Origin: Gemmatimonadales bacterium
GTDB lineage: Bacteria; Gemmatimonadota; Gemmatimonadetes; Gemmatimonadales; GWC2-71-9
Direction: 5' to 3'
DNA length: 64,000 bases
NCBI GenBank assembly: GCA_965250155.1
Contig: OZ252291.1
Location: forward strand, 2,125,669-2,189,668
The position numbers and the translations under genes are program-made. The notes beneath the pieces were generated by a model that was not told the origin of the DNA, ran no database searches, and saw only the letters and a list, made by a program, of their open reading frames with translations. Below are positions 55-62,181 of the stretch, piece by piece. Position 1 is the stretch's first letter. Each line of letters opens with the position of its first letter.

Positions 55-924
55 TCATGGGCGTGTCTTGGATGGATCCCCTGTCGAGAGATAGTAATAG
101 CCCCGATCCAGGCCCTGGTCACGACGAAACCCCACGATAGCATAATCGTGATCCATGTACCACAGCAGTACCTGGCGAGTAACCGCACGCCAAGTGAGCG
201 CGCTCTCGGGATCGGCTCGCTTGATCGACTGGATGTCTAGTGGGATCGCAACCCGAAGGGACGGAGGCGTGGGGGACGCTCCATGGTGCGGCACGGGCTC
301 GCCATTTGCTTCGGCATCAACCGTGGGACTGGCAACATCGAGTTCGGTTGCTTCCACGGCTTCACCGCGAAGGATTCTCTCGACCTGTGGATCGTCGAGT
401 CTCCACTCGACCACAAGTCTGTCCGTGCCCAAGCCGCTGTGAAGCTCGCTACCGGTGTTGCTGCCGTACATATCGGGGATGTACTCGATGGGACGGGCCC
501 CCAGGAGGTTCATGTTCAGGTGTGCGTTTCCCGCAATGAGAGGGTCATACGTCCAGAACGCCACGTCGATGCCTGCGGCCAGGAGCAGCTCTCGCTGTAG
601 GGCCTTGAGGCGCCGGCCTATTCCGATTCTGCGGTATTCCGGGTACACGGCGAGCATGTGGGACCAGTGGGCGGGGCGTCCGTCTCTCAGTCCGCTGATG
701 CCGTATACGAATCCGATTAGCCGCTCGTCGGTGTCAAAAGCGCCCGCCGCAACGCCCCCCACCTTCTGGCTGATCTGAAGTATCGAGGCAGGAACACACT
801 CTGTGAAGTCGTGCCCCCAGGTATCAAGCTGCAGTTTGACGCACTGCTCGTAATCGTTCCTAGTCTCAAACGGACGCAATACGATTTCGGCCTGGTCGGA
901 CCGGGGTGTGTCACCGGAACTCAA
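55..924 (-). CDS. GNAT-family acyltransferase (COG3375-like, D-amino acid N-acyl/succinyltransferase type)
   Basis: Motifs WSHMLAV-P-YR-GIG-LK, WTYDPL--NA-LN, GL-TDRLVVEW. Start moved to the TTG at 924, which overlaps the upstream stop (TTGA). Confidence 0.8.
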   Translation of the reverse strand: MSSGDTPRSDQAEIVLRPFETRNDYEQCVKLQLDTWGHDFTECVPASILQISQKVGGVAAGAFDTDERLIGFVYGISGLRDGRPAHWSHMLAVYPEYRRIGIGRRLKALQRELLLAAGIDVAFWTYDPLIAGNAHLNMNLLGARPIEYIPDMYGSNTGSELHSGLGTDRLVVEWRLDDPQVERILRGEAVEATELDVASPTVDAEANGEPVPHHGASPTPPSLRVAIPLDIQSIKRADPESALTWRAVTRQVLLWYMDHDYAIVGFRRDQGLDRGYYYLSTGDPSKTRP

Positions 925-2039
925 GCTTGCGTCTCCTGCCGAACGCCAATACCGGAGCGGCGCCGGATTTTCCATATCCCCAACGTCAGGACCGGCGCTA
1001 CGAACACTATCAAGAAGAGCCACGTGAGGGTGCCGTATCCCTTCGCGATGAGGTTGATCAGGCCGAAGCTCGCAACCAGGGCTCCGATCACCAGCAACGT
1101 CAAAGCGATCACGGGACGGGCATATGCACGGAGTTCTATTCCCTCTTCACGAAACCGTGTTGCCAGACGTTCGTTGACGGCGTGAATCATCCCGGTTCCG
1201 GTCTCGATGAGCGTTCCGAACAAGACGATCTGGAAGGTAAGCTGAAATGCCCGAGAGCCGAGAATATTGAGCAGGAAATTGGCCGGGATCGCCTCTCCCA
1301 GGATCTCCGGGTATTGACCGACCATCGCGAGGTAGAACAGAAGCGCCGAAAACATGGCGATGGGTCCGGTGAGGAGCCCCGCGCCGACCGCTTCGCGTCG
1401 CGTTTTGGCGTGGCGTATGGTAAACAGAATGGCAGGGATGAGCGCCAGGTTATACGCCGCGTATTCGATGCCTCCTACGATCCAATCTGTGTCGAGACTC
1501 GCTGCGCCGAATCCGGAAACGATGTCTGGGCCAAACCGCATGAAGCACCAAACGAAGAGCACGAGGTAGACCGCATACAGCACAAAGGACCACCCGGCGA
1601 AGAACTTTTCGATGACGGCGGTGCCGCGAAACGCGAGAAACCCCACGGCGATCATGATGGTGATTACACCGAAGGCGTAGGGGAGGCCGAACGTCTCCTC
1701 CAAGATGCTCCCGGCGGCTGCGGCGATGACGGCGAGGACGATCAACAGGAGCCCGAAATAGCAGATTTCGTATAGAAACCATGCCCCTCCCAGAAGGTGC
1801 TGGAAAAAGCTGCGGTAGTCGTAGCTGCCGTACATGCGGGCGAGTTCGAAGCTCGTAGCGGCTACTGCGCTCCAGATGACCGTCGACACCAGGACCATGG
1901 ACAGAAGCCCGCCGAGCGGGCCCCTGGTGAGAAAAAACTCGGCCAGCTCGCGGCCGGTGCCGTAGCCCCCCGCGATTACAACCGATTGAAAGATGAAACC
2001 CGGTAGAAAATAGCGTTTGAAGACCGACTCTCTAATCAA
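921..2039 (-). CDS. YkvI-like multi-pass membrane protein (putative amino acid transporter)
   Basis: About 10 hydrophobic segments; N-terminal VIAGGYGTGRELAEFF motif typical of the YkvI/COG3949 family. Confidence 0.8.
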   Translation of the reverse strand: MIRESVFKRYFLPGFIFQSVVIAGGYGTGRELAEFFLTRGPLGGLLSMVLVSTVIWSAVAATSFELARMYGSYDYRSFFQHLLGGAWFLYEICYFGLLLIVLAVIAAAAGSILEETFGLPYAFGVITIMIAVGFLAFRGTAVIEKFFAGWSFVLYAVYLVLFVWCFMRFGPDIVSGFGAASLDTDWIVGGIEYAAYNLALIPAILFTIRHAKTRREAVGAGLLTGPIAMFSALLFYLAMVGQYPEILGEAIPANFLLNILGSRAFQLTFQIVLFGTLIETGTGMIHAVNERLATRFREEGIELRAYARPVIALTLLVIGALVASFGLINLIAKGYGTLTWLFLIVFVAPVLTLGIWKIRRRSGIGVRQETQA

Positions 2040-2124
2040 AGCCGCCTCGCTTGATCTTTGACTCCACAGAGACCACGATTAGTGACCATCGCAAGAGAGT
2101 CCGACCTCCCGTCAAGGAAAACGT

Positions 2125-2388
2125 ATGCGTCTGCTCATCTGCGTTCTGCTGTCGTTGCTCCTGGCCGCCGGATGCTCACTGGGCCAAGGGAACATCGCAG
2201 CGCGAAGCGGCTATCGCGAGGTGGCGGAGCGCCTCACGAATTTCATTCGCCACGAGATGGCTGACAAGGGGCTGCCTGCCCTATCGATCGTGCTGGTGGA
2301 CGACCAGGAAACGGTTTGGGGGAGGCCCCCACGTTTCAGCTCGGCATGGCACCTGCGGGATAGGCGAGTTGGCCTGCACGCGACATGA
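2125..2388 (+). pseudogene. N-terminal remnant of a beta-lactamase-family serine hydrolase lipoprotein fused to an unrelated tail
   Basis: Lipobox LAAGC, then FIRHEMADKGLPALSIVLVDDQETVW; no SxxK catalytic region; ends ATGA on the next gene. Confidence 0.6.
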
Positions 2389-3350
2389 GGCAGATTGACG
2401 TACGCCGTGCGGCGGAGAGGATCACACTGCTGGCGCGACAAACGCCCGTCGTGCCTGCGCCGATACTGTCGACGCTATTGGGTGGGATCTCCGCATGGCT
2501 GAAGCTGGAGAACCTGCAAGTCACCGGGTCGTTCAAGGTGAGGGGCGCGGCGAACAAGATCGCATCGCTGGACAAGAAGGACAGGGAGCGCGGCATCGTG
2601 ACGTGTTCCAGCGGCAACCACGGTCGGGCCGTCGCCTACGTCGCCGAGGCGTTGGCGATTCCTGCGACTGTGTGTGTTCCAGAGTGGGTCGATCCGGTGA
2701 AGCTCGAGGCTATACGGCAACACGGAGCGGAAGTGGTGCTTCACGGTGCGACCTATGATGACGCGGAAGCGCGCTCATTTGAAATCCAGCAAGAGCGTGG
2801 GCTCGCCTACGTGCACCCCTTCGACGATCCACTTGTTATCGCGGGGCAGGGGACGATCGGCCTCGAGTTGGTGGAACAGATCCCCTCGTTGAGGACAGTC
2901 GTGGTACCGCTGTCGGGCGGCGGTTTGATCGCAGGGATTGCCAGCGCCGTGAAGGACTGGGATTCGGATTGCCAGGTTATTGGAGTCTCCGCCAAGAACG
3001 CGTCCGTCATGTACGAGAGTCTCAGGGCTGGTGCTCCGCGGGCTGTTCCGGAGAAGGAAACGATCGCCAGCGCACTTGCCGGAGGGATCGGTATCGACAA
3101 TCGTCATTCGTTCGACCTCGTTCGAGAGTTGGTGGATCAGCACGTACTCGTGTCGGAAGAGGAGATTCGTGAGGCGATGCGTTTCGCTGCCTCGGAACAC
3201 AATGTGGTGGTGGAGGGAGGGGGAGCGGTAGCAATAGCTGCCGTCTTATCCGAGAAACTCGTCGATCTGAGTGGGGATGTTGCCCTCGTGGTGAGCGGTG
3301 GAAATGTGGATCCGTCGCTGCTGGCCGAGGTACTGACCGCGGCGCGTTAG
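2385..3350 (+). CDS. PLP-dependent threonine/serine dehydratase (catabolic, EutB/serine racemase-like)
   Basis: KLENLQVTGSFKVRGA (PLP lysine), SSGNHG, PLSGGGL, SGGNVD; no ACT domain. Confidence 0.9.
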   Translation: MRQIDVRRAAERITLLARQTPVVPAPILSTLLGGISAWLKLENLQVTGSFKVRGAANKIASLDKKDRERGIVTCSSGNHGRAVAYVAEALAIPATVCVPEWVDPVKLEAIRQHGAEVVLHGATYDDAEARSFEIQQERGLAYVHPFDDPLVIAGQGTIGLELVEQIPSLRTVVVPLSGGGLIAGIASAVKDWDSDCQVIGVSAKNASVMYESLRAGAPRAVPEKETIASALAGGIGIDNRHSFDLVRELVDQHVLVSEEEIREAMRFAASEHNVVVEGGGAVAIAAVLSEKLVDLSGDVALVVSGGNVDPSLLAEVLTAAR

Positions 3351-3402
3351 CCGGTAGGGGTTGGTGGCCGCCCGCCTACCCCGGTCTTTCCCTCTTGTCG
3401 CC

Positions 3403-3618
3403 GGCCGGCTCGGCGACGGCACTACCACCACGAAAATGACTCCGGTGCTTGTCTCTGGGGGGCTCAGCTTCGCCTCGGTGAGCGCCGGCGAAACGCACAC
3501 GTGTGGGGTCACGACCGGTGGGGACGCGTACTGCTGGGGGGACAACTTTGAGGGCCTACTCGGCGATGGCACGACAACCAACAGCAGTGTCCCGGTGCGC
3601 GTCTCTGACCCGACCTAG
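3403..3618 (+). pseudogene. C-terminal fragment of an RCC1/BLIP-II repeat protein
   Basis: GRLGDGTT...SAGETHTCGVTTGGDAYCWGDN..G.LGDGTT = about 1.5 RCC1 repeats; no credible start. Confidence 0.75.
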
Positions 3619-3678
3619 GAGCAGAACAACACTGGCTATGTATCACGTTGGGCGGGTCCAAACGATCCGCCCTTCGTG

Positions 3679-3745
3679 CGTCCCCGAAGCGTTCGGGGCT
3701 TTGGCTGGTTGGGCCAGATCCCGCAGCGCCTCTCGCTCGGGTTGC
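3679..3745 (-). repeat. Integrase 3'-tail plus hairpin, copy A (most diverged)
   Basis: Minus strand reads QPEREALRDLA then CAA where copies B/C have TAG, followed by gccccgaacg; homologous to 4743-4849 and 6027-6124. Confidence 0.6.
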
Positions 3746-3802
3746 ACCTGTCTGCGGGCCTTTCAGCCCGAGATGTGCCCACGTTACGCCTGCCGTACCG
3801 CC

Positions 3803-3873
3803 GCAACTCTTGCGGCCCCGTGTACCACGCTTCATGTTCACGTCCTGGACGGTGGCCGATCCTGGCCCCGCCG
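3803..3873 (+). repeat. Promoter-like/leader repeat, copy 1
   Basis: Aligns with 4101-4172; TTGCGG-N17-CATGTT then cggtggccgatcctggccccgccg. Confidence 0.65.
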
Positions 3874-4100
3874 CCGTAGTAGACGCCCCCCGCTTGTTGG
3901 TGGGTGAGCAGCAGCGCTACCGACTTGCCGTGAGGGAAGAGTTCTTCACGGTCTACCAGAGTCCCAGCGCAGTCATTGCGGAATTGGAGACCCGATTCGT
4001 AGCGCGAGAGTTGCGTGACAACCCACAAAGATGGCTCTTGCTTGGTCGTGACGGACCGCCCGTTTTTGCTGCGGGGATACACCTCGGGTTATGTATCGTT

Positions 4101-4172
4101 GCAACCTCTTGCGGGCCTGTGTACTCAGCGTCATTCTCTTGTCCTAGTCGGTGGCCGATGCTGGCCCCGCCG
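4101..4172 (+). promoter_or_regulatory. Promoter-like/leader repeat, copy 2, upstream of the secreted protein gene
   Basis: TTGCGG(4109)-N17-CATTCT(4132), hairpin-like leader, then GGAGG SD and ATG at 4198. Confidence 0.55.
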
Positions 4173-4197
4173 TTCCCTTCACGCAATGGAGGATCTC

Positions 4198-4725
4198 ATG
4201 CGCGCTACAACACTTCTGATAGCGGTAGCTATAGCTCTACCCTCGTCACTCACGGCTCAGGATGATGTCATTCTCAGCGCGATGAGCGCCGACCCTCTCT
4301 CTATCTCCTACGCCGCGCGCATCACGACATGGGATGGGACGGTCGTACGGGAGGGGAACAACGGGTGGACCTGCCTGCCCGATCGCCCGGACACACCGGG
4401 GAACGATCCGTGGTGTGTGGACGAGACGTGGCTCGGTTTCATCGATGCGTTGGTCAACGGCAGAGAGCCGAACTACACAACTCTGGGTACCGCGTACATG
4501 CTTATGGGCGACACCCCGGTGAGCAACACCGACCCAGCGGCGACGGAGATGACCACTGAGGCGGATTGGGTCGAAGGTCTCGGGGCGCACCTCATGATGC
4601 TCGTTCCCGATAAGAACGCCCTGCGTAACATTTCCACCGATCCATATAATGGTGGACCGTGGGTCATGTGGCCCGACACGCCTTACGCCCATGTCATGAT
4701 CCCGATCGCCAGCTACTCGAGGTAA
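4198..4725 (+). CDS. Secreted hypothetical protein
   Basis: GGAGG SD, signal peptide MRATTLLIAVAIALPSSLTA, conserved-looking GWTCLPD-P-TPG-DPWC and HLM/HVM motifs. Confidence 0.8.
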   Translation: MRATTLLIAVAIALPSSLTAQDDVILSAMSADPLSISYAARITTWDGTVVREGNNGWTCLPDRPDTPGNDPWCVDETWLGFIDALVNGREPNYTTLGTAYMLMGDTPVSNTDPAATEMTTEADWVEGLGAHLMMLVPDKNALRNISTDPYNGGPWVMWPDTPYAHVMIPIASYSR

Positions 4726-4742
4726 GACGGGAGGTGTTCAGG

Positions 4743-4849
4743 ACCCCGAGCGTCCCAGCGGCGTTCGGGGTTTTGGCTGTCTAGGCGAGGTCTCGCAACT
4801 CGTCTCGTTTGGGTTCCTGCTCCACCAAGGCCCGCAGAAGGTGTCGGGC
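4743..4849 (-). repeat. Integrase 3'-tail plus hairpin, copy B
   Basis: Minus strand LRALVEQEPKRDELRDLA-TAG(4781-4783), then hairpin accccgagcg/cgttcggggt; near-identical to copy C. Confidence 0.85.
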
Positions 4850-4879
4850 ACGGCGCTGCAACTCCGGCTGGCAGCAGCA

Positions 4880-5040
4880 CTAACATGCAGCGTGCCGGGC
4901 AAAGCAGCAAACCACGGCGTGCCGTTCGGCGCGCGGCAGACCACTCGTCGTGATCGCCTCGAGATCCTCCTGCGCAATCCCGACCTGTTTACCAATCGCC
5001 ACGTGTGCCGCCGTGCAGTGAGTGGCAGGAGTTGAGGACC
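4880..5040 (-). pseudogene. AhpD/carboxymuconolactone decarboxylase family fragment
   Basis: With one extra base removed it reads VLNSCHYCTAAHVAIGKQVGIAQEDLEAI (N-C-x-YC-x-x-H motif); both ends missing. Confidence 0.65.
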
Positions 5041-5203
5041 GCCACCGTGAGCTGGAGCGGTGACTCACCAACCGCTCGTGTTCCTCTTTGTTCCACTTCC
5101 GCTCCGGAACTCGCCGCTGGTGCCGCGTGTTACCCTAACGAGATGTAGAGAATCATGGCGCGTCGCAGTGCGCCATCGGGTACGACCTGGAAAGGACAGA
5201 GAC

Positions 5204-5947
5204 ATGCAGGCATATACACTTCGTAACGTACTGAGCTCGTTCGTAGTGCTTGCCATCGCAGGGTGCGCCTCCCTGAAGGTCCGAACGGACTACGATGAGC
5301 TCGCATCATTTGCCGAGCTGCGCACGTATGATTGGGTCGACCAGGGGGTGCATGAACCCCTTGTGGCCGACAACGGAGATGGATACTCCACCAACGGAAA
5401 CGGCTCCGGCAGCGCGGAGCCCGCGATCCATAGCCCCATCCTCGAGCGGCGCATTCGAGGCGAGATCGATAGTGAGCTCGCGCGTCTGGGCTACCGAAGG
5501 GACGCGTCAGGCGCGCCGGACTTCCGAGTCGCCTTCAAGGTGCTCACGGAGAAGGAAACGGATACCTACTCCGGAGGGTACGGAGGGTCCTACAGCCCAT
5601 ACTCCTTCGGGCATGGTCATTTCGGCCACGGTGGCTTCGGGCACGGTGGCTTCGGGCACGGTGGCTTCGGGCACGGTGGCTTCGGGCACGGTGGCTTCGG
5701 ACACGGTGGCTTCGGACATTTGGGCCTCTCACCGTACTACGGGTCATCGTACTACGGGCCCGCCATCGTGCGACAGTACGTGCGAGGCACCTTGGTGCTG
5801 GACATCGTCGACGGCCGCATGAATGAGCTCATCTGGCGCGGTTGGGCAACGGATCGATTAGACGACGATCCCAAGCCAAAGCAGGTTCGGCACTACGTGA
5901 CCGCGGCGGTGCAGAAGATTCTCGAGGAGTTCCCCCCGGCCGGCTAG
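5204..5947 (+). CDS. DUF4136-family lipoprotein with His/Gly repeat insertion
   Basis: Lipobox LAIAGC, VRTDYD..ASF...RTYDW, Y..GTLVLDIVDG..NELIWRG, ILEEFPP C-terminus. Confidence 0.85.
   Translation: MQAYTLRNVLSSFVVLAIAGCASLKVRTDYDELASFAELRTYDWVDQGVHEPLVADNGDGYSTNGNGSGSAEPAIHSPILERRIRGEIDSELARLGYRRDASGAPDFRVAFKVLTEKETDTYSGGYGGSYSPYSFGHGHFGHGGFGHGGFGHGGFGHGGFGHGGFGHGGFGHLGLSPYYGSSYYGPAIVRQYVRGTLVLDIVDGRMNELIWRGWATDRLDDDPKPKQVRHYVTAAVQKILEEFPPAG
5606..5725 (+). repeat. 15-bp coding tandem repeat, 8 units (FGHGH, FGHGG x6, FGHLG)
   Basis: ttcgggcacggtggc unit repeated with third-position variants. Confidence 0.95.
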
Positions 5948-6026
5948 GACAATGGTCGACATGGTGCACCGCCTCAAGGTTGGTTCCTTCAGGGCCACCC
6001 CCTCTCATCCTGGCCTCGGGCGTAAT

Positions 6027-6055
6027 GCCCCGAACGTCCCAGCGGCGTTCGGGGC
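6027..6055. terminator. GC-rich hairpin between convergent DUF4136 and integrase genes
   Basis: Perfect 10-bp inverted repeat gccccgaacg / cgttcggggc with 9-nt loop; no clear U-tract. Confidence 0.55.
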
Positions 6056-6064
6056 CTTGGCTGT

Positions 6065-6433
6065 CTAGGCGAGATCCCTCAACTCTTCTCGTTTGGGTGC
6101 CTGCTCCACCAGGGCCCGCAGGTGTTCTCGGGCCAGGTGGGTGTACTGCATGGTAGTCCGAAGATCAGCGTGACCAACCGCCTCTTTCACGTGCACGGGG
6201 TTCTGACCGTCGGCCAGCCATGCCGTCACTCGACGGTGCCGGAGATCGTGCTGAACGAAGTCGGACGGAAGCTTGGCGCGCTTGGTCGCGGTCCTGAACG
6301 CATCGTACAGCGAGCGGATACGTTCTCCCTTCTTGTGATGTCGGCGTGAGATCGTGTGATGGAAGATCCAGGGCGAGGGCTGACCGTTGTATTGTGCGAA
6401 GCGGTAGCGGGCGAAATGCGCATTCTCGGCCCC
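6065..6433 (-). pseudogene. Tyrosine recombinase/phage integrase, C-terminal catalytic fragment (not in ORF track)
   Basis: Open frame without a start: ...SPWIFHH...DFVQHDLRHRRVTAWLADGQNPVHVKEAVGHADLRTTMQYTHLAREHLRALVEQ...RDLA*; HxLRH, GH and catalytic Tyr present, N-terminal part absent. Confidence 0.9.
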
Positions 6434-6435
6434 CT

Positions 6436-6795
6436 ATGCCGATGGTGCCGGCGGCGGAGATGGCCGCACGCCTCGAGGAATTGTCTCCAGTTGGAGACAC
6501 GGCGCCCGACGGTGCACTGGCACCAACACCAACGTGGCAAGAACGTCTATGGACCGCTCCACCGGAAACCCGGATCGGCCGGCAGGAGCTGCTCGACGCG
6601 GTGGGCCGATCGGAGAATTGGCTTTACCGACACACCGGCGTGAAAGCTAAGTGCTCACGGATCCCGTGTCGGAAGCTCGATGGCGAGCTCGTGTTCCTGG
6701 TGGGTGAGGTGCGCCAGTGGATACTTGAGCACGAGGAAATGGTCATGCCAGGGCGGACGGCGCCGTTAGTCGGTCCCATGAGACGGCGCGCGTAA
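6436..6795 (+). CDS. Excisionase/AlpA-like HTH DNA-binding protein (possibly 5'-truncated)
   Basis: IGRQELLDAVGRSENWLYRHT...IPCRKLDGELVFLVGEVRQWI resembles a winged-HTH xis fold; adjacent to the integrase fragment. Confidence 0.65.
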   Translation: MPMVPAAEMAARLEELSPVGDTAPDGALAPTPTWQERLWTAPPETRIGRQELLDAVGRSENWLYRHTGVKAKCSRIPCRKLDGELVFLVGEVRQWILEHEEMVMPGRTAPLVGPMRRRA

Positions 6796-6797
6796 GA

Positions 6798-8768
6798 TTA
6801 CGATGCAATCAACGCGTTTAAATCCTTGAACACACGTTCAAATCGTTCGAGGGCCTCATCAATACCCGGAAGCTGCTCAACCTCCGACCGCTTGAGCGTC
6901 ATCAGGTACTCGACAGGCATATAGTGATTGAACTCGGAGAATCCGGGAGGCAGAAGGCAGCAATGGTTCTCAACCTCTTTGACGACTCTCTCGGGTGCAT
7001 TTTCCGGTTTGGTTGCCGGTAAGCGGTGACTCTCCGGCAATTCCATTGCGGCGTTGGTCAACTCGATATACATAGGGCGGCCTATTAGGTCCTCGATATC
7101 GGATTCGTCCTGCCCAGAATATGTGCTTGTGCGCAAGACATGTCCGGTAGGCAAAAGGCCAGTATTCTCGAGCCGATCGATTGTCCCCTTCTGGCCGTCA
7201 TGGTAATCCGCAAACACGGCGATCTTGAGTTCACGGCCGCTGAAGAGAGTGACGAAGCTGCTGATCTTACTGGCACCCTCGGCAGGGCACACCGCCCATC
7301 GCAAATCAAGACTTTCACGGTCGTGGTGTGCAAGTTGACGAGAGAACCAGTCAAAGAGCGCCCGCTCGGTTGGCCCCTCTACCACCACCACATAGGGGCC
7401 TACAAAAAGCGTTTGCGCCATATTGAAACCCAGGATTCCCTGTAGTGGAAACAGGGTGTCTTTGTCCCGACTCAAAATCCGCTCGCCAACTTTCGTTCCT
7501 TTGATTTCCTCTATGAACTCGCCATTGCTTTGCCGCACCTTCACGACGACATCTTCAACCGTGCGTAGCGAGTTGATATTCTCGATGTCCAACATAAATG
7601 GTGAGTGGGCGGTGTAGATTACTTGATGATGCGGCCTCAGTTTTTCGTTGATGTAACGAATTAGGTCCTCTTGTGCACGACCGTGCAAGGAAAGGCCCGG
7701 TTCGTCGAGCAGTAGAATGAGGTCCTTGTTGAACCGCTGCTTCATCTGCGAGAACCATACGAGAAACGAAAAGAACCATATGAATCCATGACTTCGATAC
7801 TCAAAGCTCACCGTGGCCCGATGTCGAGTGTTGAAGATGCGTGTATTGAATACAAACCCCGTATTGAACGGTGGTGGATCATTTGGTTTTGCCTTGTCGT
7901 ATCGGAATCGGACCTCCAGGTACTGATTCTGTGACCAGTAATTCCGGACCTCGTCAGTCAGGGCCGCCTCGACCGACTCTAGTTCCATGATGAGCTTCTC
8001 CAGTTGGTCAATCCCTTCGATTTCCTCAAGACTGGTGCTCGTCATTTCGAGAAGTGCTAGAAAGATCTTGTGTTCGATGTTGAGGGTGTTTTCGTCTTTG
8101 CGCTGTTTGATGTCGTCTAATGACAGGCGACCAGGAAGGTGATCATAGTTTCGGAAATGGATGAAAAGCGGGAGGCGTTCTGCTAAACGACCTTGAACAA
8201 ACGCGTGTACTTCTTGATCAGGGAAGATTGAAGTAAGGCGTTGTAATAGCTGGCTCTGCTTGTCGGTCGGTGATTCGATGGCTTTCAAGCTGGAGACCAA
8301 ATCTGGTATGGAACTAGCATTCGTTAGAGGCGCCTTGTCAGATGCATTGAAGTCGGCAGCGGTGACGTAGGAGTCGACGACCCGCCCCTCGTTCAGGTCG
8401 AAAGTCCATACCAGTGTGTTCTCATAGCCTTTGGATACGATAATCTCACGGCTATCGAGGCATCCGGGACCCAATGTTTCCTCTAGGTCAGCGACATCGG
8501 CATCGGAAAGCTCCCAATAGGTTGTCAATATCGTGGCAGGTGTTCGCTCCCGGCGCTGCTTATACGTCGCCAAGTGCCGCCGGGGGAATTCTTCCTCAAT
8601 GAAATTCCTCGCGTCAGATTCGACCGGATTGAGTTTATAAAGGGCCTCCAGAAGGGCAGTCTTGCCAGCTTCGTTTTTCCCCACGAGGCACGTAACCTGG
8701 TCGACGGTGAATTCGTTGGAGTCCTCGACGCATCTAAAGTTTTCTACTCTGATCTTGGTCAACTTCAT
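6798..8768 (-). CDS. OLD-family ATP-dependent nuclease (ABC/AAA ATPase plus TOPRIM), putative anti-phage protein
   Basis: MKLTKIRVENFRC start with AGGAG SD; Walker A GKNEAGKT, Walker B LLLDEP, H-loop YTAHSP, TOPRIM VVEGPTE and FADYHD, DIED; AT-richer than flanks. Confidence 0.85.
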   Translation of the reverse strand: MKLTKIRVENFRCVEDSNEFTVDQVTCLVGKNEAGKTALLEALYKLNPVESDARNFIEEEFPRRHLATYKQRRERTPATILTTYWELSDADVADLEETLGPGCLDSREIIVSKGYENTLVWTFDLNEGRVVDSYVTAADFNASDKAPLTNASSIPDLVSSLKAIESPTDKQSQLLQRLTSIFPDQEVHAFVQGRLAERLPLFIHFRNYDHLPGRLSLDDIKQRKDENTLNIEHKIFLALLEMTSTSLEEIEGIDQLEKLIMELESVEAALTDEVRNYWSQNQYLEVRFRYDKAKPNDPPPFNTGFVFNTRIFNTRHRATVSFEYRSHGFIWFFSFLVWFSQMKQRFNKDLILLLDEPGLSLHGRAQEDLIRYINEKLRPHHQVIYTAHSPFMLDIENINSLRTVEDVVVKVRQSNGEFIEEIKGTKVGERILSRDKDTLFPLQGILGFNMAQTLFVGPYVVVVEGPTERALFDWFSRQLAHHDRESLDLRWAVCPAEGASKISSFVTLFSGRELKIAVFADYHDGQKGTIDRLENTGLLPTGHVLRTSTYSGQDESDIEDLIGRPMYIELTNAAMELPESHRLPATKPENAPERVVKEVENHCCLLPPGFSEFNHYMPVEYLMTLKRSEVEQLPGIDEALERFERVFKDLNALIAS

Positions 8769-8837
8769 GGGGGCGCTCCTGTGTTTGTGCCCGCCCTGGG
8801 GGCAAATGGTCTTTGATTCGACCGCATTTTCTTTTTT

Positions 8838-8859
8838 TTGTGTCCAATGTTGTGTCCAA
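8838..8859. repeat. 10-bp direct repeat TTGTGTCCAA x2, putative integrase arm-type site
   Basis: 8838-8847 and 8850-8859, about 60 bp from the tRNA 3' end. Confidence 0.55.
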
Positions 8860-8918
8860 CGGCTGGCGCCGCGGCGAAATGGCACAGTGCTGGGAGCGTG
8901 TAAGTCGTTGCGTGACAA

Positions 8919-9005
8919 CGGAGAGGGAGGGATTCGAACCCTCGAAGGCCGCAAGACCTTACCGGTTTTCGAGACCGGCTCCTTCAACCACTCGGACACC
9001 TCTCC
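8919..9005 (-). tRNA. tRNA-Ser(CGA)
   Basis: GGAGAGG/CCTCTCC acceptor stem, anticodon arm CCGGT-CTCGAAA-ACCGG, long variable arm, GGTTCGAATCC T-loop, discriminator G; CCA not encoded. Confidence 0.97.
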
Positions 9006-9051
9006 CAGCGACGCATAATAGAGGGATGGGTAACCTCTTTCCAGGGCTGTT

Positions 9052-9405
9052 ATGTGGAACATTCTGGTTGCGATCGAGCTTAGGGATCTACTGAACCTGG
9101 ACATTCTACATCGGAGCCGGACGCATCGGCCAGGCGGTGGCACGCCGCGCTCTCTGATTCGGAATGTCTATCCTTTATATGGACCAATCCCCGCAACCCG
9201 TCTTCGAGGCAGAAACCGGCGCCCGGCGAGCGACGATGGACGAATTGTTGCAAGACAGCCTCTCGTCGCTCATCCGCGTGTGGTGTGCGTGCCACATCTG
9301 GGCAGTGCCACTCGGCACACCCGGGCCGCCATGGCGAACCTGGCGGCCCGCAACGTCCGGGCTGTGCTGGCGGGCGACCCGCCGATCACACCGGTTCCTC
9401 GTTGA
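9052..9405 (+). pseudogene. D-2-hydroxyacid dehydrogenase (glyoxylate/glycerate reductase type), internally deleted
   Basis: One frame gives IGAGRIGQAVARRAL*FGMSILY...DELLQDS; another gives HPRVVCVPHLGSATRHTRAAMANLAARNVRAVLAG; most of the gene is missing. Confidence 0.85.
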
Positions 9406-9430
9406 CCTCATGGCCTTGCACCCCTAACTT
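9402..9430 (+). promoter_or_regulatory. Sigma70-type promoter of pyrR-pyrB-pyrC
   Basis: TTGACC-N17-TAACTT, 11 nt before the pyrR ATG. Confidence 0.7.
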
Positions 9431-9441
9431 CCGCGGCGACT

Positions 9442-9996
9442 ATGAGCGTTGCAGACGAACGCAACACCCTCCTCGACGCCCGTGATATCGCGCGGGCGAT
9501 ACAGCGTATGGCCAAGCAAGTCGTCGATTTCGCTGGCGGTACCGACCGCTTGGTATTGGTCGGTATCCAGCGGCGTGGTGTGGACCTCGCCCGGCGGCTG
9601 GGAACCCTCATCGCCGACGGCGCGGAGACGGTCATACCCAGGGGAGAGTTGGACATCACCCTATACCGTGACGACCTGCAGACCATCGGTCCTGCCCCAG
9701 TGGTGGGGAGAACCGATATCCCCATGGAGCTGACCGACCGGTGCGTGATGATCGTGGACGACGTCCTGTATACGGGCCGCACCGTGCGAGCGGCCCTTGC
9801 CGTGCTCACCGACTTCGGGCGCCCGTCCAGAATCGGCCTGTGCACGCTGATCGACCGGGGGGGACGGGAGTTGCCGATCCAAGCCGACATTGTAGGGGAA
9901 ACCGTGGACGCCGAACCCGGTGACCGTGTAGACGTCCTGTTGGAGGAACGCGACGGCAGAGATGCCGTAGTACTGGTCCGAGGGTCGGAGGAATGA
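9442..9996 (+). CDS. pyrR: Bifunctional pyrimidine regulator/uracil phosphoribosyltransferase
   Basis: [37 protein letters not shown]. Confidence 0.95.
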
Positions 9997-10991
9997 TACG
10001 CGACTCTTCCTCCTCCGCCCCATCCCTGGGGAAAGATCTCCTAGGCCTCGAACCTCTCTCCGCAGATCAAATCCGACTCGTCCTCGACACCGCAGAACCG
10101 TTCAAAGAAGTCAGCGAACGGGCCATCAAAAAAGTCCCGACTCTTCGCGGTAAGACAATCGTAAACCTGTTCTACGAGGCCTCCACACGAACGCGCCTGG
10201 CGTTCGAGTTCGCCGAAAAACGGCTATCGGCGGATACCGTGAACATCGCGGGGGCGGGCTCTTCGGTGGAGAAGGGTGAGAACCTGGTCGATACGGCGCG
10301 CAACCTCGAGGCGATGCGGATCGATATGGTTGTCATCAGGCATCCGGCGTCGGGCGCCGCCGGCTTCCTGGCCGATCGCATTCCATCCAATGTGATCAAC
10401 GCCGGTGACGGTTGCCACGAACATCCCACTCAGGGATTGCTCGACCTGCTGACCATTCGCGACAAGTTGGGCCGCATCGAAGGGATAAGAGTCTGCATCT
10501 GCGGAGACATACTGCACAGCCGCGTGGCCCGCAGCAACATCTGGGGCTTGCTGAAGCTCGGCGCAGAGGTGGCTGTATGCGGCCCCGGGTCTCTGCTTCC
10601 CCGGGGCATCGAGGAGCTGGGCGTACATGTCTTCCGGCACCCGGAAGAAGCCATCGAGTGGGCGGACGTGTTGAACGTGTTGCGACTCCAGCTGGAACGA
10701 ATGCAGGCGGGCTACATCCCGTCTCTGGATGAGTACTACCGCGTGTACGGAATCACCCAGAAACGCCTCGAGCGTGCTCCACGTGACGTGTTGATTCTCC
10801 ACCCGGGGCCCATGAACCGGGGCGTGGAGATCGACTCGATGGTCGCAGACGGACCGCACAGCGTGATCCTGCAACAGGTGACGAACGGTATCGCCGTCCG
10901 CATGGCCGTGTTGTACCTCCTCGCAGGAGGCACACCGGAGCGGGCCGATGTGGCCAAGGCCGAAGATGCGCCGGCCGGAGTCAGACGATGA
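9993..10991 (+). CDS. pyrB: Aspartate carbamoyltransferase catalytic subunit
   Basis: [34 protein letters not shown]. Confidence 0.97.
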
Positions 10992-12274
10992 GGCCGGTCT
11001 TGTTGAAAGGCGGGAGGGTGATCGATCCCTCTCGGAAACTGGATCGGGCAGCCGACGTGCTGATTCAGGACGGCCGGATCGCGGCGGTGGAATCGAACGT
11101 GACCGCCCCCGAAGGTGCCGAAACCATCGACGCATCGGGGATGGTGGTGGCCCCCGGTCTGGTCGACGTGCACGTGCACCTCCGGGAACCGGGCAATGAG
11201 GAGGCGGAAACCGTAGCTACGGGAGCGCGGGCGGCCGCGGCGGGGGGCTTCACGTCTGTCTGCGCTATGCCCAACACCGACCCTGTCACCGACAACCAGG
11301 CGGCGATCGGGTTCATCGTCAAGCAGGCAAACGCGGCACAAAGTGCCCGCGTTTTTCCCTACGGCGCAATCTCTATCGGCCAGCGAGGCGAGCATCTGGC
11401 CGAGTTCGCCAAGCTGATTGAAGCGGGAGCGATTGCGTTCAGCGACGACGGGCACTCGGTGCTGTCCAGCCATCTCATGCGAACGGCCCTCGAATACGCC
11501 CAGGCCTTCGGCATCCCGGTGGCCGATCACTGCGAAGAGCCGTCCCTCGCAAAGGGGGGCGCGATGCACGAGGGTGTGGTCTCTACCCGACTCGGGCTCA
11601 AGGGAATCCCGGCTGCCGCCGAGGAGATCATGGTGGCGCGGGATGTGATACTGTCGGAGCTCACCGGCGGGCACGTCCACCTCTGTCACATCTCCACCAA
11701 GGGCAGCGTGGACATCATCAGACGGGCGAGGGAAAACGGCGTGAACGTGACCGCCGAGGTCACTCCCCATCACCTGACGCTGACCCATGACGAGTGTGAA
11801 GGGTACAATACCAACGCCAAAATGAATCCGCCTCTTCGTGAGGAAGCCGATGTGGTGGCGTTGCGGGAAGCACTCAAAGACGGCACCCTCGACATGATCG
11901 CCACGGACCACGCGCCCCACCATTACGAGGCCAAGGAACGGGACTTCGACGATGCCCCCCTCGGCATCGTCGGCTTGGAGACGGCTCTGGGGCTCGGCGT
12001 CAAGGAGCTGGTGAACGGCGGGGTGCTGAGCTTGCTGGAACTGATGAGGCGGATGAGCACCGAACCCGCCAAAGCGTTTCACTTGGACGCCGGGACGCTC
12101 GAACCCGGAAAACCGGCCGACCTGGTGATCTTCGATCCCGGCGCGACCTGGACAGTTGATCCCACGGGGTTCTATTCCAAGAGTCGCAATACCCCCTATA
12201 CGGGCCATGTGCTCACAGGCCGGGTCGAGCGCACTATCGTTGGCGGGCGGACGGTGTTTCAGCGGGACTCATAA
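10988..12274 (+). CDS. pyrC: Dihydroorotase
   Basis: [29 protein letters not shown]. Confidence 0.96.
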
Positions 12275-21152: not shown

Positions 21153-22768
21153 TCTCGTTCGATGCGCCCTTCGTCTTGTATGCCGCGCCGGTGGTGGCCT
21201 TGTTCATTGTCGGTCTTGCATTATGGGCGCGCTCTTCCCGAGTGCGGCACGCCCTGGTGTGGTCGGACGACATAGGAGCCGTCGCGCGACAGACGGGACG
21301 TTGGGGTGCGGTGGCATTGGGCGTTACAGCGCTGTTGGTGAGCACGGCGCTCGCAGGTCCGCGGTTCGGACGCCGCGTCGTCACGACCGAAACCAAGGCC
21401 CTCACAATGGTGCTGGCGGTCGACATATCGCGCTCCATGCTGGCCGAAGACGTTCGGCCATCGCGTCTCGGACGGGTACAACGCGAAGCACGGCGGCTGG
21501 TTCAGGATCTCAGGGGAGACCGTATCGGGCTGATTGCGTATGCCGGTCGCAGCTTCATCCTGTCTCCCCTCACAGTAGACGACGGTGCGCTGCAACTCCT
21601 GATCGATGGGCTGGCTCCCGACATGGTGAGCGCGGGTGGCACGGAATTGGCCGTCGCACTCGACCAGGCTCGACAACTGTTGCTGGCCGGCCCGGGTGTC
21701 GCCGATCGCGTCCTGGTGCTGTTTACCGACGGTGAAGCGCACGACTCGCTGTCGCAGATTTTGTTGGCTGCGGAACGACTGCGACGTGATGGGATCCAGC
21801 TGGTCGTGATCGCCGAAGGGGGGGCGGTGCCCGTCGGAATACCACTTCGCGACCCCAACGGAGTGTTGACCGGCTACCAAGAAGACCTGGACGGAAACTT
21901 GGTCCAAACGTGGCGCCGTAATGACATCCTCTCAGCCGTCGTGGCTGCGGCGCGAGGCGCGCTGGTTCCCGCGGGACTAGGAGACCAGGCGGGTGCGGTT
22001 CGCGACCTGGTCGATTCCTTCAAGCGAGCACCGCAGGCCACAACGACTGCGGCGCAAGACATCTCCAGGGCATGGATCCCGCTGTTGATCGCGGTGGGGG
22101 TTTTGCTGTTGCAAACCTACACGCGTCGTACGGCGGCGCTTGCCGGGATCGCGTTCTTGCTGGTGGCGCCACGCACGGCGGTCGGTCAATCCACATTGAG
22201 CGACGCCGATCGGGCCTGGCGTGACAGCCTCTTTGCCGAGGCCGCCGACCTGTATGAGGCGCAGACCATGTCACGACAGGGAGGCGACACCGCTTGGCTG
22301 AACCTCGGCACGGCGGCGCTTGCCATTGGGGACACCGCTCGCGCCGGTCCGGCGCTCTTGCACGCCGCGGAGTCATTCGATCCGGAATTGCGGTTTCGGG
22401 CCTTGTTCAACCTCGGTCTGCTCTTGCTGCGACTCGCGGAGGTCGACGAGTCGAATCGCCAAGCGTACCTCGACGAAGCGCGACGCCGCTACCGCGAGGC
22501 GTTGCTCCTGAGGCCCGGGGACGAGGACGCCAAGTGGAATTACGAGGTGACTGTGCGGTCCACACCACCACAGAGCGGCGGTGGCCGACAACCGCCGCCG
22601 ACGGGTAGAGAGCAAAATGATCCCCGGGGAGATCCCCAGACCGGTCTGAGCCGCGAGCAGGCAGAGCAGATTCTCAACTCCATGTTGGCGGAAGAGCACG
22701 AGACGCTGGATAAGATCAATCGACGGCGCGCCCAACCGCGCCAAGCAATGCGGAGGAAGAATTGGTGA
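21149..22768 (+). CDS. vWA plus TPR protein (BatB-BatC-like fusion)
   Basis: DISRSM, DRIGLIAYAG, TDGEAH, then TPRs (WLNLG, FNLG, DAKWNYE) and an AEQILN tail. Confidence 0.8.
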   Translation: MISFDAPFVLYAAPVVALFIVGLALWARSSRVRHALVWSDDIGAVARQTGRWGAVALGVTALLVSTALAGPRFGRRVVTTETKALTMVLAVDISRSMLAEDVRPSRLGRVQREARRLVQDLRGDRIGLIAYAGRSFILSPLTVDDGALQLLIDGLAPDMVSAGGTELAVALDQARQLLLAGPGVADRVLVLFTDGEAHDSLSQILLAAERLRRDGIQLVVIAEGGAVPVGIPLRDPNGVLTGYQEDLDGNLVQTWRRNDILSAVVAAARGALVPAGLGDQAGAVRDLVDSFKRAPQATTTAAQDISRAWIPLLIAVGVLLLQTYTRRTAALAGIAFLLVAPRTAVGQSTLSDADRAWRDSLFAEAADLYEAQTMSRQGGDTAWLNLGTAALAIGDTARAGPALLHAAESFDPELRFRALFNLGLLLLRLAEVDESNRQAYLDEARRRYREALLLRPGDEDAKWNYEVTVRSTPPQSGGGRQPPPTGREQNDPRGDPQTGLSREQAEQILNSMLAEEHETLDKINRRRAQPRQAMRRKNW

Positions 22769-61315: not shown

Positions 61316-62181
61316 GCATCTTCGTCGATCGAGATACCAAACTGGTCGTTCAAGGCATCACGGGTCGCGATGGATCGTTCCACACGAGCCAGATGATGGA
61401 GTACGGCACGCAGGTGGTGGCGGGAGTGACGCCCGGCAAGGGAGGCCAACGCTTCAACCGCACCGTGCCCGTGTTCGACACCGTGGCGGATGCGGTAGCG
61501 GAAACCGGCGCCAACGCCTCCGTCATCTACGTCCCGGCGCGGTTCGCGTCAGATGCAATCTACGAGGCAGCCGATGCCGGCATCGAGCTCATCGTCTGCA
61601 TCTCTGAAGGCGTACCGGTGCTGGATATGACCCGTGTGATCCCGTTCCTACGGGAAAAGGGGACGCGCCTTATCGGGCCCAATTGCCCGGGAGCTATTTC
61701 CCCGGGTCGGTCGAAGGTCGGGATCATTCCAGGTCCAATTTGCCGGGAGGGGAAGGTCGGTGTGGTGTCTCGCAGTGGCACCCTGACGTATGAAATCATT
61801 CACCAACTCTCCGAGAACGGCTACGGTCAGTCGACCTGCGTCGGCATCGGCGGCGATCCCATCATTGGGACCAATTTCATCGAATGCCTGGCGGCCTTCG
61901 AAGCCGACCCTGACACCGATGCGATCGTCCTGATCGGAGAGATCGGGGGGACCGACGAGCAGCAAGCTGCGCAATACGTCGCTGACTACGTCACGAAACC
62001 CGTGGTGGGCTTCATTGCCGGACAAACCGCGCCCCCGGGGCGGCGCATGGGCCACGCCGGGGCTATTATCTCTGGGTCCAGCGGCACGGCAGCCGAGAAG
62101 ATGGCGGCGCTGGAGTCGGCAGGTATCTGCGTGATGAAACGGCCTGCAGACGTGGTTTCCCTCTTGAAGGAGCGACTCTGA
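61312..62181 (+). CDS. sucD: Succinyl-CoA synthetase alpha subunit
   Basis: [28 protein letters not shown]. Confidence 0.97.

Follow-up and report, generated by a model that had tools for sequence, protein, structure and literature searches.

A mosaic block of integrase gene 3' ends, hairpin repeats and single cargo genes beside tRNA-Ser(CGA) in a Gemmatimonadales genome

The window analysed here is a stretch of 64,000 nucleotides (nt; G000:C1:2125669-2189668) from the single-contig 3.13-Mb genome (G000) of its source organism, a Gemmatimonadales bacterium, and was compared with eight congeners, of which G001 is the closest relative. A characteristic of this window is a run of short units, lying between a threonine dehydratase-like gene and tRNA-Ser(CGA), in which the 3' end of a tyrosine integrase gene (int) joined to a hairpin repeat (HP) occurs three times, as copies A, B and C. 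This raises the question as to whether the three integrase tails are the remains of integrases that decayed in place, the sites of a gene-accretion system, or junctions brought in from elsewhere. The features at the locus, including a promoter-like repeat that we call D4, are the following (lengths of products in amino acids, aa).

2385-3350, plus strand: threonine dehydratase-like gene, the conserved left flank (open reading frame list, and 94% identity to G001:C226 over 2362-3354).
3361-3618, plus strand: RCC1-repeat fragment, 85 aa, convergent on tail A (Pfam RCC1, E 2.5e-13).
3679-3707, no strand: HP_A, a degenerate version of the hairpin repeat found throughout the genome.
3709-3760, minus strand: tail A, ~12 recognisable integrase C-terminal codons (PEREALRDLA), stop lost.
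3795-3885, plus strand: D4a, a copy of the promoter-like D4 repeat.
3895-4154, no strand: non-coding-looking fragment, a 90% copy of which lies at genome 5245-5503; copies in four congeners, and no Pfam match in the plus frame.
4093-4172, plus strand: D4b, a further copy of D4, which immediately precedes the exported-protein gene.
4198-4725, plus strand: gene whose 175-aa product starts with a signal-peptide-like sequence and has no match in Pfam.
4744-4781, no strand: HP_B, hairpin repeat with a short T-run on the cargo side.
4781-4849, minus strand: tail B, 22 integrase C-terminal codons plus stop, cut at a recurrent 'B-type' edge.
4939-6059, plus strand: DUF4136 module, a 91% copy of genome 69605-70636.
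5204-5947, within that module: DUF4136 lipoprotein gene (Pfam), convergent on copy C.
6028-6059, no strand: HP_C, hairpin repeat (z = -3.3).
6065-6430, minus strand: copy C, an integrase stump of 121 C-terminal aa that includes the HxxR and Tyr region and is without the N-terminal ~two thirds.
6436-6795, plus strand: gene for a 119-aa protein, divergent from int, with 72% nucleotide identity to G004:C122.
6798-8768, minus strand: OLD-family ATPase-TOPRIM nuclease, 656 aa, defence-type cargo beside tRNA-Ser.
8919-9005, minus strand: tRNA-Ser(CGA), also matched by Rfam; the variable block is bounded on the right by the 3' end of this gene.

Homology between G000 and G001 on the left stops at 3354 and picks up again at 8916, identity in the flanks being 94% over 2362-3354 and 93% over 8916-11448 (range 92-94%). 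In between, G000 has 5.56 kb where G001 carries 1.28 kb of unrelated DNA, in which lie a gene for an exported, cupin-like protein and one HP variant in reverse orientation, so that the tRNA-Ser(CGA) locus is a variable hotspot, in support of the initial annotation. Since G001 matches both flanks and holds other DNA between them, the strain-specific block can be delimited by alignment as 3355-8915 (5.56 kb), from the threonine dehydratase gene to tRNA-Ser(CGA). The block stops 3 nt past the 3' end of the tRNA gene and, like an island inserted at a tRNA 3' end, is absent from a close relative. In an Rfam scan of 3000-9500 no family was matched by D4 or HP, and the tRNA was the only hit to exceed the threshold.

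A repeat search of the block yields a three-copy direct repeat family (3675-3743, 4747-4815 and 6031-6099, with 75-77% identity to copy A) and a 106-nt direct pair (4744-4849 and 6028-6133, copies B and C, 88% identity), which together correspond to units of an integrase 3' end plus hairpin at 3675-3760, 4744-4849 and 6028-6133, all co-oriented. The sole continuation into a catalytic fragment is that of the third, int-proximal copy (C), which aligns with positions 88-171 of the 172 in Pfam PF00589 (E 6e-11) and hence carries tyrosine recombinase catalytic sequence; a stop codon lies just upstream of it, at ~6433, and the gene is reduced to its C-terminal third. The minus-strand translation of copy B ends ...LRALVEQEPKRDELRDLA, then stop. 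Copy A has CAA in place of the TAG stop kept by the other copies, and its similarity is weak, with a local score of 27 against a null maximum of 25 (630 shuffles, all beaten). Repeat search and translations therefore agree with the initial description of three co-oriented integrase tails with a hairpin, of which only the third runs into a catalytic domain. The convergent genes named there are likewise borne out, by Pfam for the RCC1 fragment and the DUF4136 lipoprotein and by the signal-peptide-like N-terminus for the secreted-type 175-aa protein. The suggestion that copies B and C derive from once-functional alleles, made from an apparent synonymous excess, cannot be upheld on these counts: the 18 sense codons of the 57-nt stretch compared show 3 synonymous and 2 non-synonymous codon differences, and the variable columns of seven tails are distributed 7, 3 and 8 by codon position (chi-square p = 0.31), a comparison without statistical power.

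No intact integrase with this tail was found in G000 or the eight congeners, a paralogue in G000 having been sought by tblastn with both the tail and the fragment, and a viral-contig search with the integrase fragment found no relative. A candidate fourth tail following HP at genome 2728159 scored 13, which is not significant, and was discarded. RNAalifold predicts a small imperfect hairpin that begins at the tail edge; the tail part shows no covariation, the single compensated pair among the 24 predicted lying in HP, and inverted repeats picked by eye around the tail edge were not used.

The direct repeats, 1072 and 1284 nt apart, could in principle reflect local tandem duplication of a tail, HP and gene by unequal crossing-over, followed by divergence and gene replacement. 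We disfavour this explanation as very improbable: the DNA between the repeats has no homology from unit to unit, copy A is just 75-77% identical to B and C, and copy B resembles copies in other genomes (88% to G007; 97% over 71 nt to G002:C13) at least as much as it resembles copy C (88%).

The tail itself is the normal C-terminus of an integrase family. The 378-aa integrase of G005 ends ...DLRSLVETKEDLKELAI, intact relatives of the stump measure 378-447 aa, and in metagenome contig L094 the catalytic Tyr region continues into the same tail and HP. Scanning for the tail pattern returned three loci in genome contigs (the G007 and G002 copies that were already known) and seven in metagenome contigs. 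In six tails, which we call B-type (window copy B, G007:C66, G002:C13, G002:C4, L089 and L091), homology to the intact gene stops 63-72 nt upstream of the stop codon, and the DNA upstream of this edge is unrelated in all six contexts; the G002:C13 tail is without HP, and that of G002:C4, which lies beside a threonine dehydratase homologue, has a 5-nt deletion. Six further instances are shorter (37-48 nt), and four of these, window copy A among them, have D4 in the same relative position and look like a single lineage of an HP, short tail and D4 spacer. Copy A matches this composite of tail and D4 in G002, L090 and L092, with 78% identity over ~220 nt to that of G002:C13 (window 3675-3888). Apart from copy C and L094, no instance has a length between ~72 nt and the 366-nt stump.

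These edges bear on a second explanation, namely that three whole islands inserted serially at tRNA-Ser and that each decayed by random deletion to its last int codons and one cargo gene. A precedent for such a history is a graveyard in G007:C66 with two 55-nt tRNA-Ser 3' fragments and several integrase fragments in tandem, and the locus does differ between closest relatives. However, the units in the window are not separated by tRNA-Ser fragments, copy A and its D4 neighbour pre-exist as a composite in other genomes, and cargo has been copied from other loci of the same genome (see below). Moreover, random deletions would not stop within ~10 nt of one position in six contexts, just as six independent uniform breakpoints along a 1.2-kb gene would not all land within 10 nt. 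Because a fixed 5' edge with unrelated upstream DNA recurs in other genomes, the truncated tails are not well accounted for by random decay, the outcome that the initial annotation had named as its refutation, and we regard serial insertion and decay as improbable. In the G007:C66 graveyard, between two integrase fragments (L031, 3789-4537), we also noticed by eye an XRE-type helix-turn-helix gene and a gene for a small RelE/HigB-like protein, which resemble a toxin-antitoxin pair.

In contrast to the tail, HP is dispersed. It is a 32-nt element with a conserved loop and 22-23 copies in G000, and it occurs in 9/9 genomes of the genus, G000 counted. Of 33 matches returned by a genome search with 6020-6165, nearly all are confined to the first 40 bases, and a tail follows HP in 3 of the 21 copies tested, all three at this locus. 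The idea that tail plus hairpin forms a unit of this locus is thus correct for the ~65-nt coding tail, for which nucleotide search and tblastn find only the three local copies in G000, and incorrect for the scattered hairpin. The stem-loop is predicted to be stable (-15.9 kcal/mol, z = -3.3) and lies 18-80 nt past cargo stops; one side of it reads CTTTG or TTTTG only, and HP may act as a terminator. Clustering the 80-nt flanks of the HP copies showed that one left family (5 copies) is joined to three right families and one unique flank, and that three right-flank families, the tail included, each have two different left partners. The flanks reassort in the way that recombination within or at HP would make them do, homologous and site-specific recombination predicting the same pattern.

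The second repeat, D4, was defined from window 3807-3873 and 4106-4172 and has ~19 copies in G000 (e.g. at 62095, 1369975, 2339499 and 2700-2728 kb). Its fuller consensus spans ~150-170 nt with -35/-10-like hexamers and is sharp at both edges; copies of D4 are listed for at least 7 of the 8 congeners, and marine-sediment metagenome contigs carry the repeat in great abundance. D4 precedes unrelated genes, most of them encoding signal-peptide or lipoprotein-like N-termini, and we infer that D4 is a promoter with a leader. Seven same-strand pairs of D4 and HP, 0.57-1.33 kb apart, enclose unrelated genes, again mostly with signal-peptide or lipoprotein-like starts; the typical module consists of one D4 repeat, one exported-protein gene and HP. 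PF00589 matches lie near most D4/HP clusters in G000. Two marine-sediment metagenome runs have HP/D4 bins that reach a depth of 600-6000, versus roughly 0-400 elsewhere. In metagenome contigs placed at a likeness of at least 90%, which show that the adjacency exists and not its frequency, the end of HP is joined to the start of D4 with 1-19 letters between them in 7 of the 12 rows listed. An 'empty' module is seen at G000 2728100-2728196, with D4 joined straight to HP via a shared CCCCG, and looks like the product of a microhomology deletion of the cargo gene. A further recurrent companion is a gene for a protein with zinc-ribbon, transmembrane and SH3-like parts (G000 2211319-2211813, 2717055-2717621 and 2375821-2376285), which is divergent from D4 in several islands and shows 74-88% nucleotide identity among its copies, including those of G001 and G007.

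Where the cargo genes come from can be traced in part. The module at 4106-4773 (D4b, the 175-aa protein gene and HP_B) is 92-93% identical to G001:C116 and G007:C180, and these two copies share one mutually syntenic context, which corresponds to G000 2.211-2.212 Mb and is unlike that of the window. At G000 2211946-2212083 there is a deleted remnant of the module, 100% identical over 84 nt, and the module in the window is, judged by these alignments, a copy from the 2.21-Mb locus of the same genome. It has been either exchanged or unusually conserved, because the core flanks of G007 are just 71-76% identical to G000. The DUF4136 module has a different source, at genome 69605-70636, and the copied segment (4939-6059) has one end exactly at HP while the other cuts a minus-strand gene. 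Taken together, the alignments support separate origins for the cargo segments of the window. Within the DUF4136 lipoprotein gene, 5590-5733 holds seven 15-nt tandem repeats encoding (GHGGF)n, and metagenome contigs carry 15- and 60-nt length variants of these repeats.

What is observed is that the units repeat, that their cargo has separate origins, that flanks reassort at HP, that the tails stop at fixed edges and that int is truncated. The interpretation that we favour, and hold with moderate confidence, is that an island family found across the genus has left the block behind as a mosaic relic, now inert, whose pieces were stacked when recombination took place at conserved junction sequences. 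Specifically, 3355-8915 would be a decayed integrative island at the 3' end of tRNA-Ser(CGA). Its tRNA-proximal part would be the remains of one element, with an OLD-type nuclease, a small divergent gene and an int cut to its last 121 codons, and the distal part (3361-6060) would have been pieced together from short modules that circulate between the islands of this Gemmatimonadales genus. HP would be the seam where modules join and reassort. Int occupies the outer end of the island in this integrase family, which places its 3' end beside the HP seam, and the tails would for this reason be fossils of int 3' ends kept on HP. Copies A and B would then have been stacked, with their cargo, downstream of the resident int, through recombination at HP or at the tail, either homologous or site-specific; they were probably imported as ready-made junction units of tail and HP, as opposed to three integrases decaying in place. 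The initial proposal that elements repeatedly inserted here, or recombined through the tail or hairpin, accordingly survives in part: reassortment at HP and the separate cargo agree with it, whereas copies A and B probably arrived ready-made. Since no intact integrase is present, the array is most likely inert today.

Several results weigh against this relic interpretation. No tRNA-Ser fragment that could serve as the distal attachment site (attR) occurs inside the block, the tRNA-Ser fragments of G007 matching the window only at the tRNA itself, and classical island boundaries are therefore missing; a repeat search of 3000-9500 likewise gave no convincing tRNA copy. Simple scans called neither a terminator at HP, where five T were required and the T-run is too short, nor a sigma-70 promoter in D4a or D4b. 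Homologous recombination at HP accounts for the seams at HP but leaves the fixed 5' edge of the tails unexplained, because nothing upstream of that edge is shared, and the fixed B-type edge is the best argument for the attachment-site alternative considered next. All tail instances come from one genus plus seven short metagenome contigs and may not be independent. Lastly, no excision or circular-junction joints were obtained from the material, which comprised assembled contigs only. The single joint in the organism's own run links 3889 with 4745, as expected from the paralogous junction of D4 and HP at genome 2728100-2728196, and a metagenome joint from 6146 to 8918, with 20 letters on one side, was not used.

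According to the attachment-site alternative, the ~100-nt unit from the fixed int 3' edge through HP is the attachment (att) site of the integrase in a site-specific accretion platform. Small integrase-less modules carrying the unit would dock serially, each bringing a new tail and moving the old one distally, and the result would be a docking array akin to that of an integron or of cis-mobilizable elements, with a different site architecture. This agrees well with a 5' edge that falls within ~10 nt in six contexts with unrelated upstream DNA, and with the existence of two edge classes (63-72 nt, and 37-48 nt in six more instances) and nothing from ~72 nt up to the 366-nt stump. The three local copies all point the same way, the one nearest int being the only complete one, and the loop sequence of HP is kept across copies, as one would expect if it were a crossover spacer but not if HP were simply a terminator. 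An att repeat inside the integrase gene has a partial precedent in the ssrA islands of Dehalococcoides (PMC3146451). In members of the integrase family, moreover, the att repeat lies within 48 to ~170 nt of the int stop: a tRNA-derived att repeat follows 48 nt past the stop in G083, and a tRNA-like fragment ~170 nt past it in G005.

The same relatives also speak against the platform, since they demonstrably use tRNA-derived repeats as att sites. In G004 an intact island of 6.2 kb, with a small gene divergent from int, lies between tRNA-Val and a 43-nt copy of the 3' part of this tRNA gene, and distal tRNA-derived direct repeats are present in G004, G007 and G083. The DUF4136 'cassette' was copied only in part, with a ragged far end that falls inside a gene, the same cargo modules occur elsewhere without tails, and the tail part of the supposed site has neither covariation nor a convincing core-type inverted repeat; the lack of junction joints counts against the platform as well. 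As int is a stump and G000 holds no other gene with this tail, a working integron-like platform, as originally proposed, is not supported, and we consider an att-site function of the unit rather unlikely. A broader version, in which a hitherto undescribed cassette system of marine Gemmatimonadales moves single-gene D4-gene-HP modules by means of tyrosine integrases docking at a ~100-nt unit that overlaps the last 20 codons of int and includes HP, would make the tails an ordered record, each docking renewing the integrase tail and pushing the old one downstream; this we judge to be unlikely. A 10-mer found both where D4a starts and in the variable arm of tRNA-Ser was considered as a possible att core and dropped, given its 24 genome occurrences and the abundance of chance tRNA matches. 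In L113 (G083:C3), 48 nt separate the end of an integrase gene (9830-11122) from tRNA-Cys. The 5' half of this tRNA gene (38 nt) has an exact copy at a distance of 9.3 kb, and its 3' half (36 nt) has one at 5.8 kb on the opposite side, which suggests two islands that use the two halves of one tRNA gene.

How, then, does the array compare with known systems? Integrons, as here, stack single-gene units one way by a tyrosine recombinase gene, with an imperfect-palindrome repeat between genes. In the window, however, the array lies downstream of int and converges on it, cargo has its own promoter-like element, and the hairpin is 32 nt long, whereas attC sites are imperfect palindromes of 57-141 nt with R'' and R' boxes. 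By eye, neither HP nor the tail with HP contains RYYYAAC or GTTRRRY boxes, and the cargo genes are co-oriented but convergent on int, two of them being preceded by D4, which has promoter-like hexamers in its consensus. An integron was rejected, as the local int is not an IntI (TIGR02249, 37.8 bits against a cut-off of 265). The only IntI-like gene of G000 lies 1.33 Mb away (797136-798075, minus strand) and is frameshifted into two pieces of ~210 bits each (TIGR02249).

REP and BIME elements are short GC-rich palindromes dispersed at gene 3' ends, where they form rearrangement hotspots. HP resembles them as a set of ~22 dispersed GC-rich palindromes at gene 3' ends that marks such a hotspot, and differs in that its copies are concentrated in integrase-bearing islands, not spread chromosome-wide. 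A REP/RAYT system was nonetheless set aside: the repeat is present, and the Y1/RAYT transposase (PF01797) has no match in G000, which is rated 96% complete. In Rhs, contact-dependent inhibition and type VI secretion effector loci, an incoming 3' end with its cargo pushes the old 3' end downstream and so gives rise to 'orphan' arrays. The window has the same kind of 3'-fragment array; here, however, what is displaced is a non-catalytic tail of 20 codons that lacks a partner immunity gene, and there is no apparent selective reason to swap tails. Like tRNA-targeting islands, the block has defence cargo, a small divergent gene and a catalytic fragment of the PF00589 family next to a tRNA 3' end, but intact islands of this kind among the relatives are bounded by tRNA-derived direct repeats, while the block is without such a repeat and its int is a stump.

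Overall, the block is most like the accretion arrays found at tRNA and tmRNA genes. Co-oriented copies of tail and HP flank its two inner units, their role as att sites being putative; a cognate integrase that could act in cis or trans is lacking, as int is truncated and tblastn finds no intact tail-bearing paralogue. An example is provided by the Dehalococcoides ssrA islands (PMC3146451): an att repeat inside the integrase gene is described there, and many islands are without an integration module and are read as cis-mobilizable. Both loci are variable regions downstream of a small RNA gene, and both consist of several co-oriented units delimited by repeats of a gene 3' end. They differ in that the repeated 3' end in the window is that of an integrase gene plus a hairpin repeat and not of a tRNA, in that the units measure ~1.1-1.3 kb with one gene each, and in that the recombinase is of the tyrosine type and defunct. 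Judged by titles and the beginnings of abstracts, the papers listed in a literature search on integrons in Gemmatimonadota do not deal with such repeats.

The product of 6798-8768, a gene directly downstream of tRNA-Ser, matches Pfam AAA_15 (8e-26) and an OLD-like TOPRIM domain (2e-6), and among its best PADLOC matches are AriA (2e-27), Old (6e-24) and also GajA; this single-gene OLD-family nuclease is a candidate anti-phage defence cargo. The 119-aa protein has no Pfam, PHROG or PADLOC match, and the counterpart of its gene in G004 adjoins an intact int; we may speculate that it is an excisionase or a DNA-binding regulator. Elsewhere in the window, ARAGORN calls a 95-nt tRNA at 21294-21388 (plus strand) of undetermined type with a two-base 'anticodon', which may be an unusual tRNA (e.g. 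for selenocysteine) or a false call.

Finally, the locus is of interest for a phylum that is poorly studied and yet common in marine sediments. If the tail with HP were a recombination site, it would represent a second, independently evolved form of single-gene accretion beside a tyrosine recombinase, besides integrons. On the more ordinary reading, D4 and HP are junction repeats that would explain the mosaic islands of the genus, and they could serve as markers for such islands in metagenomes, where they are very abundant. In either case, gene 3' stubs that lie beside repeats need not mean local decay.

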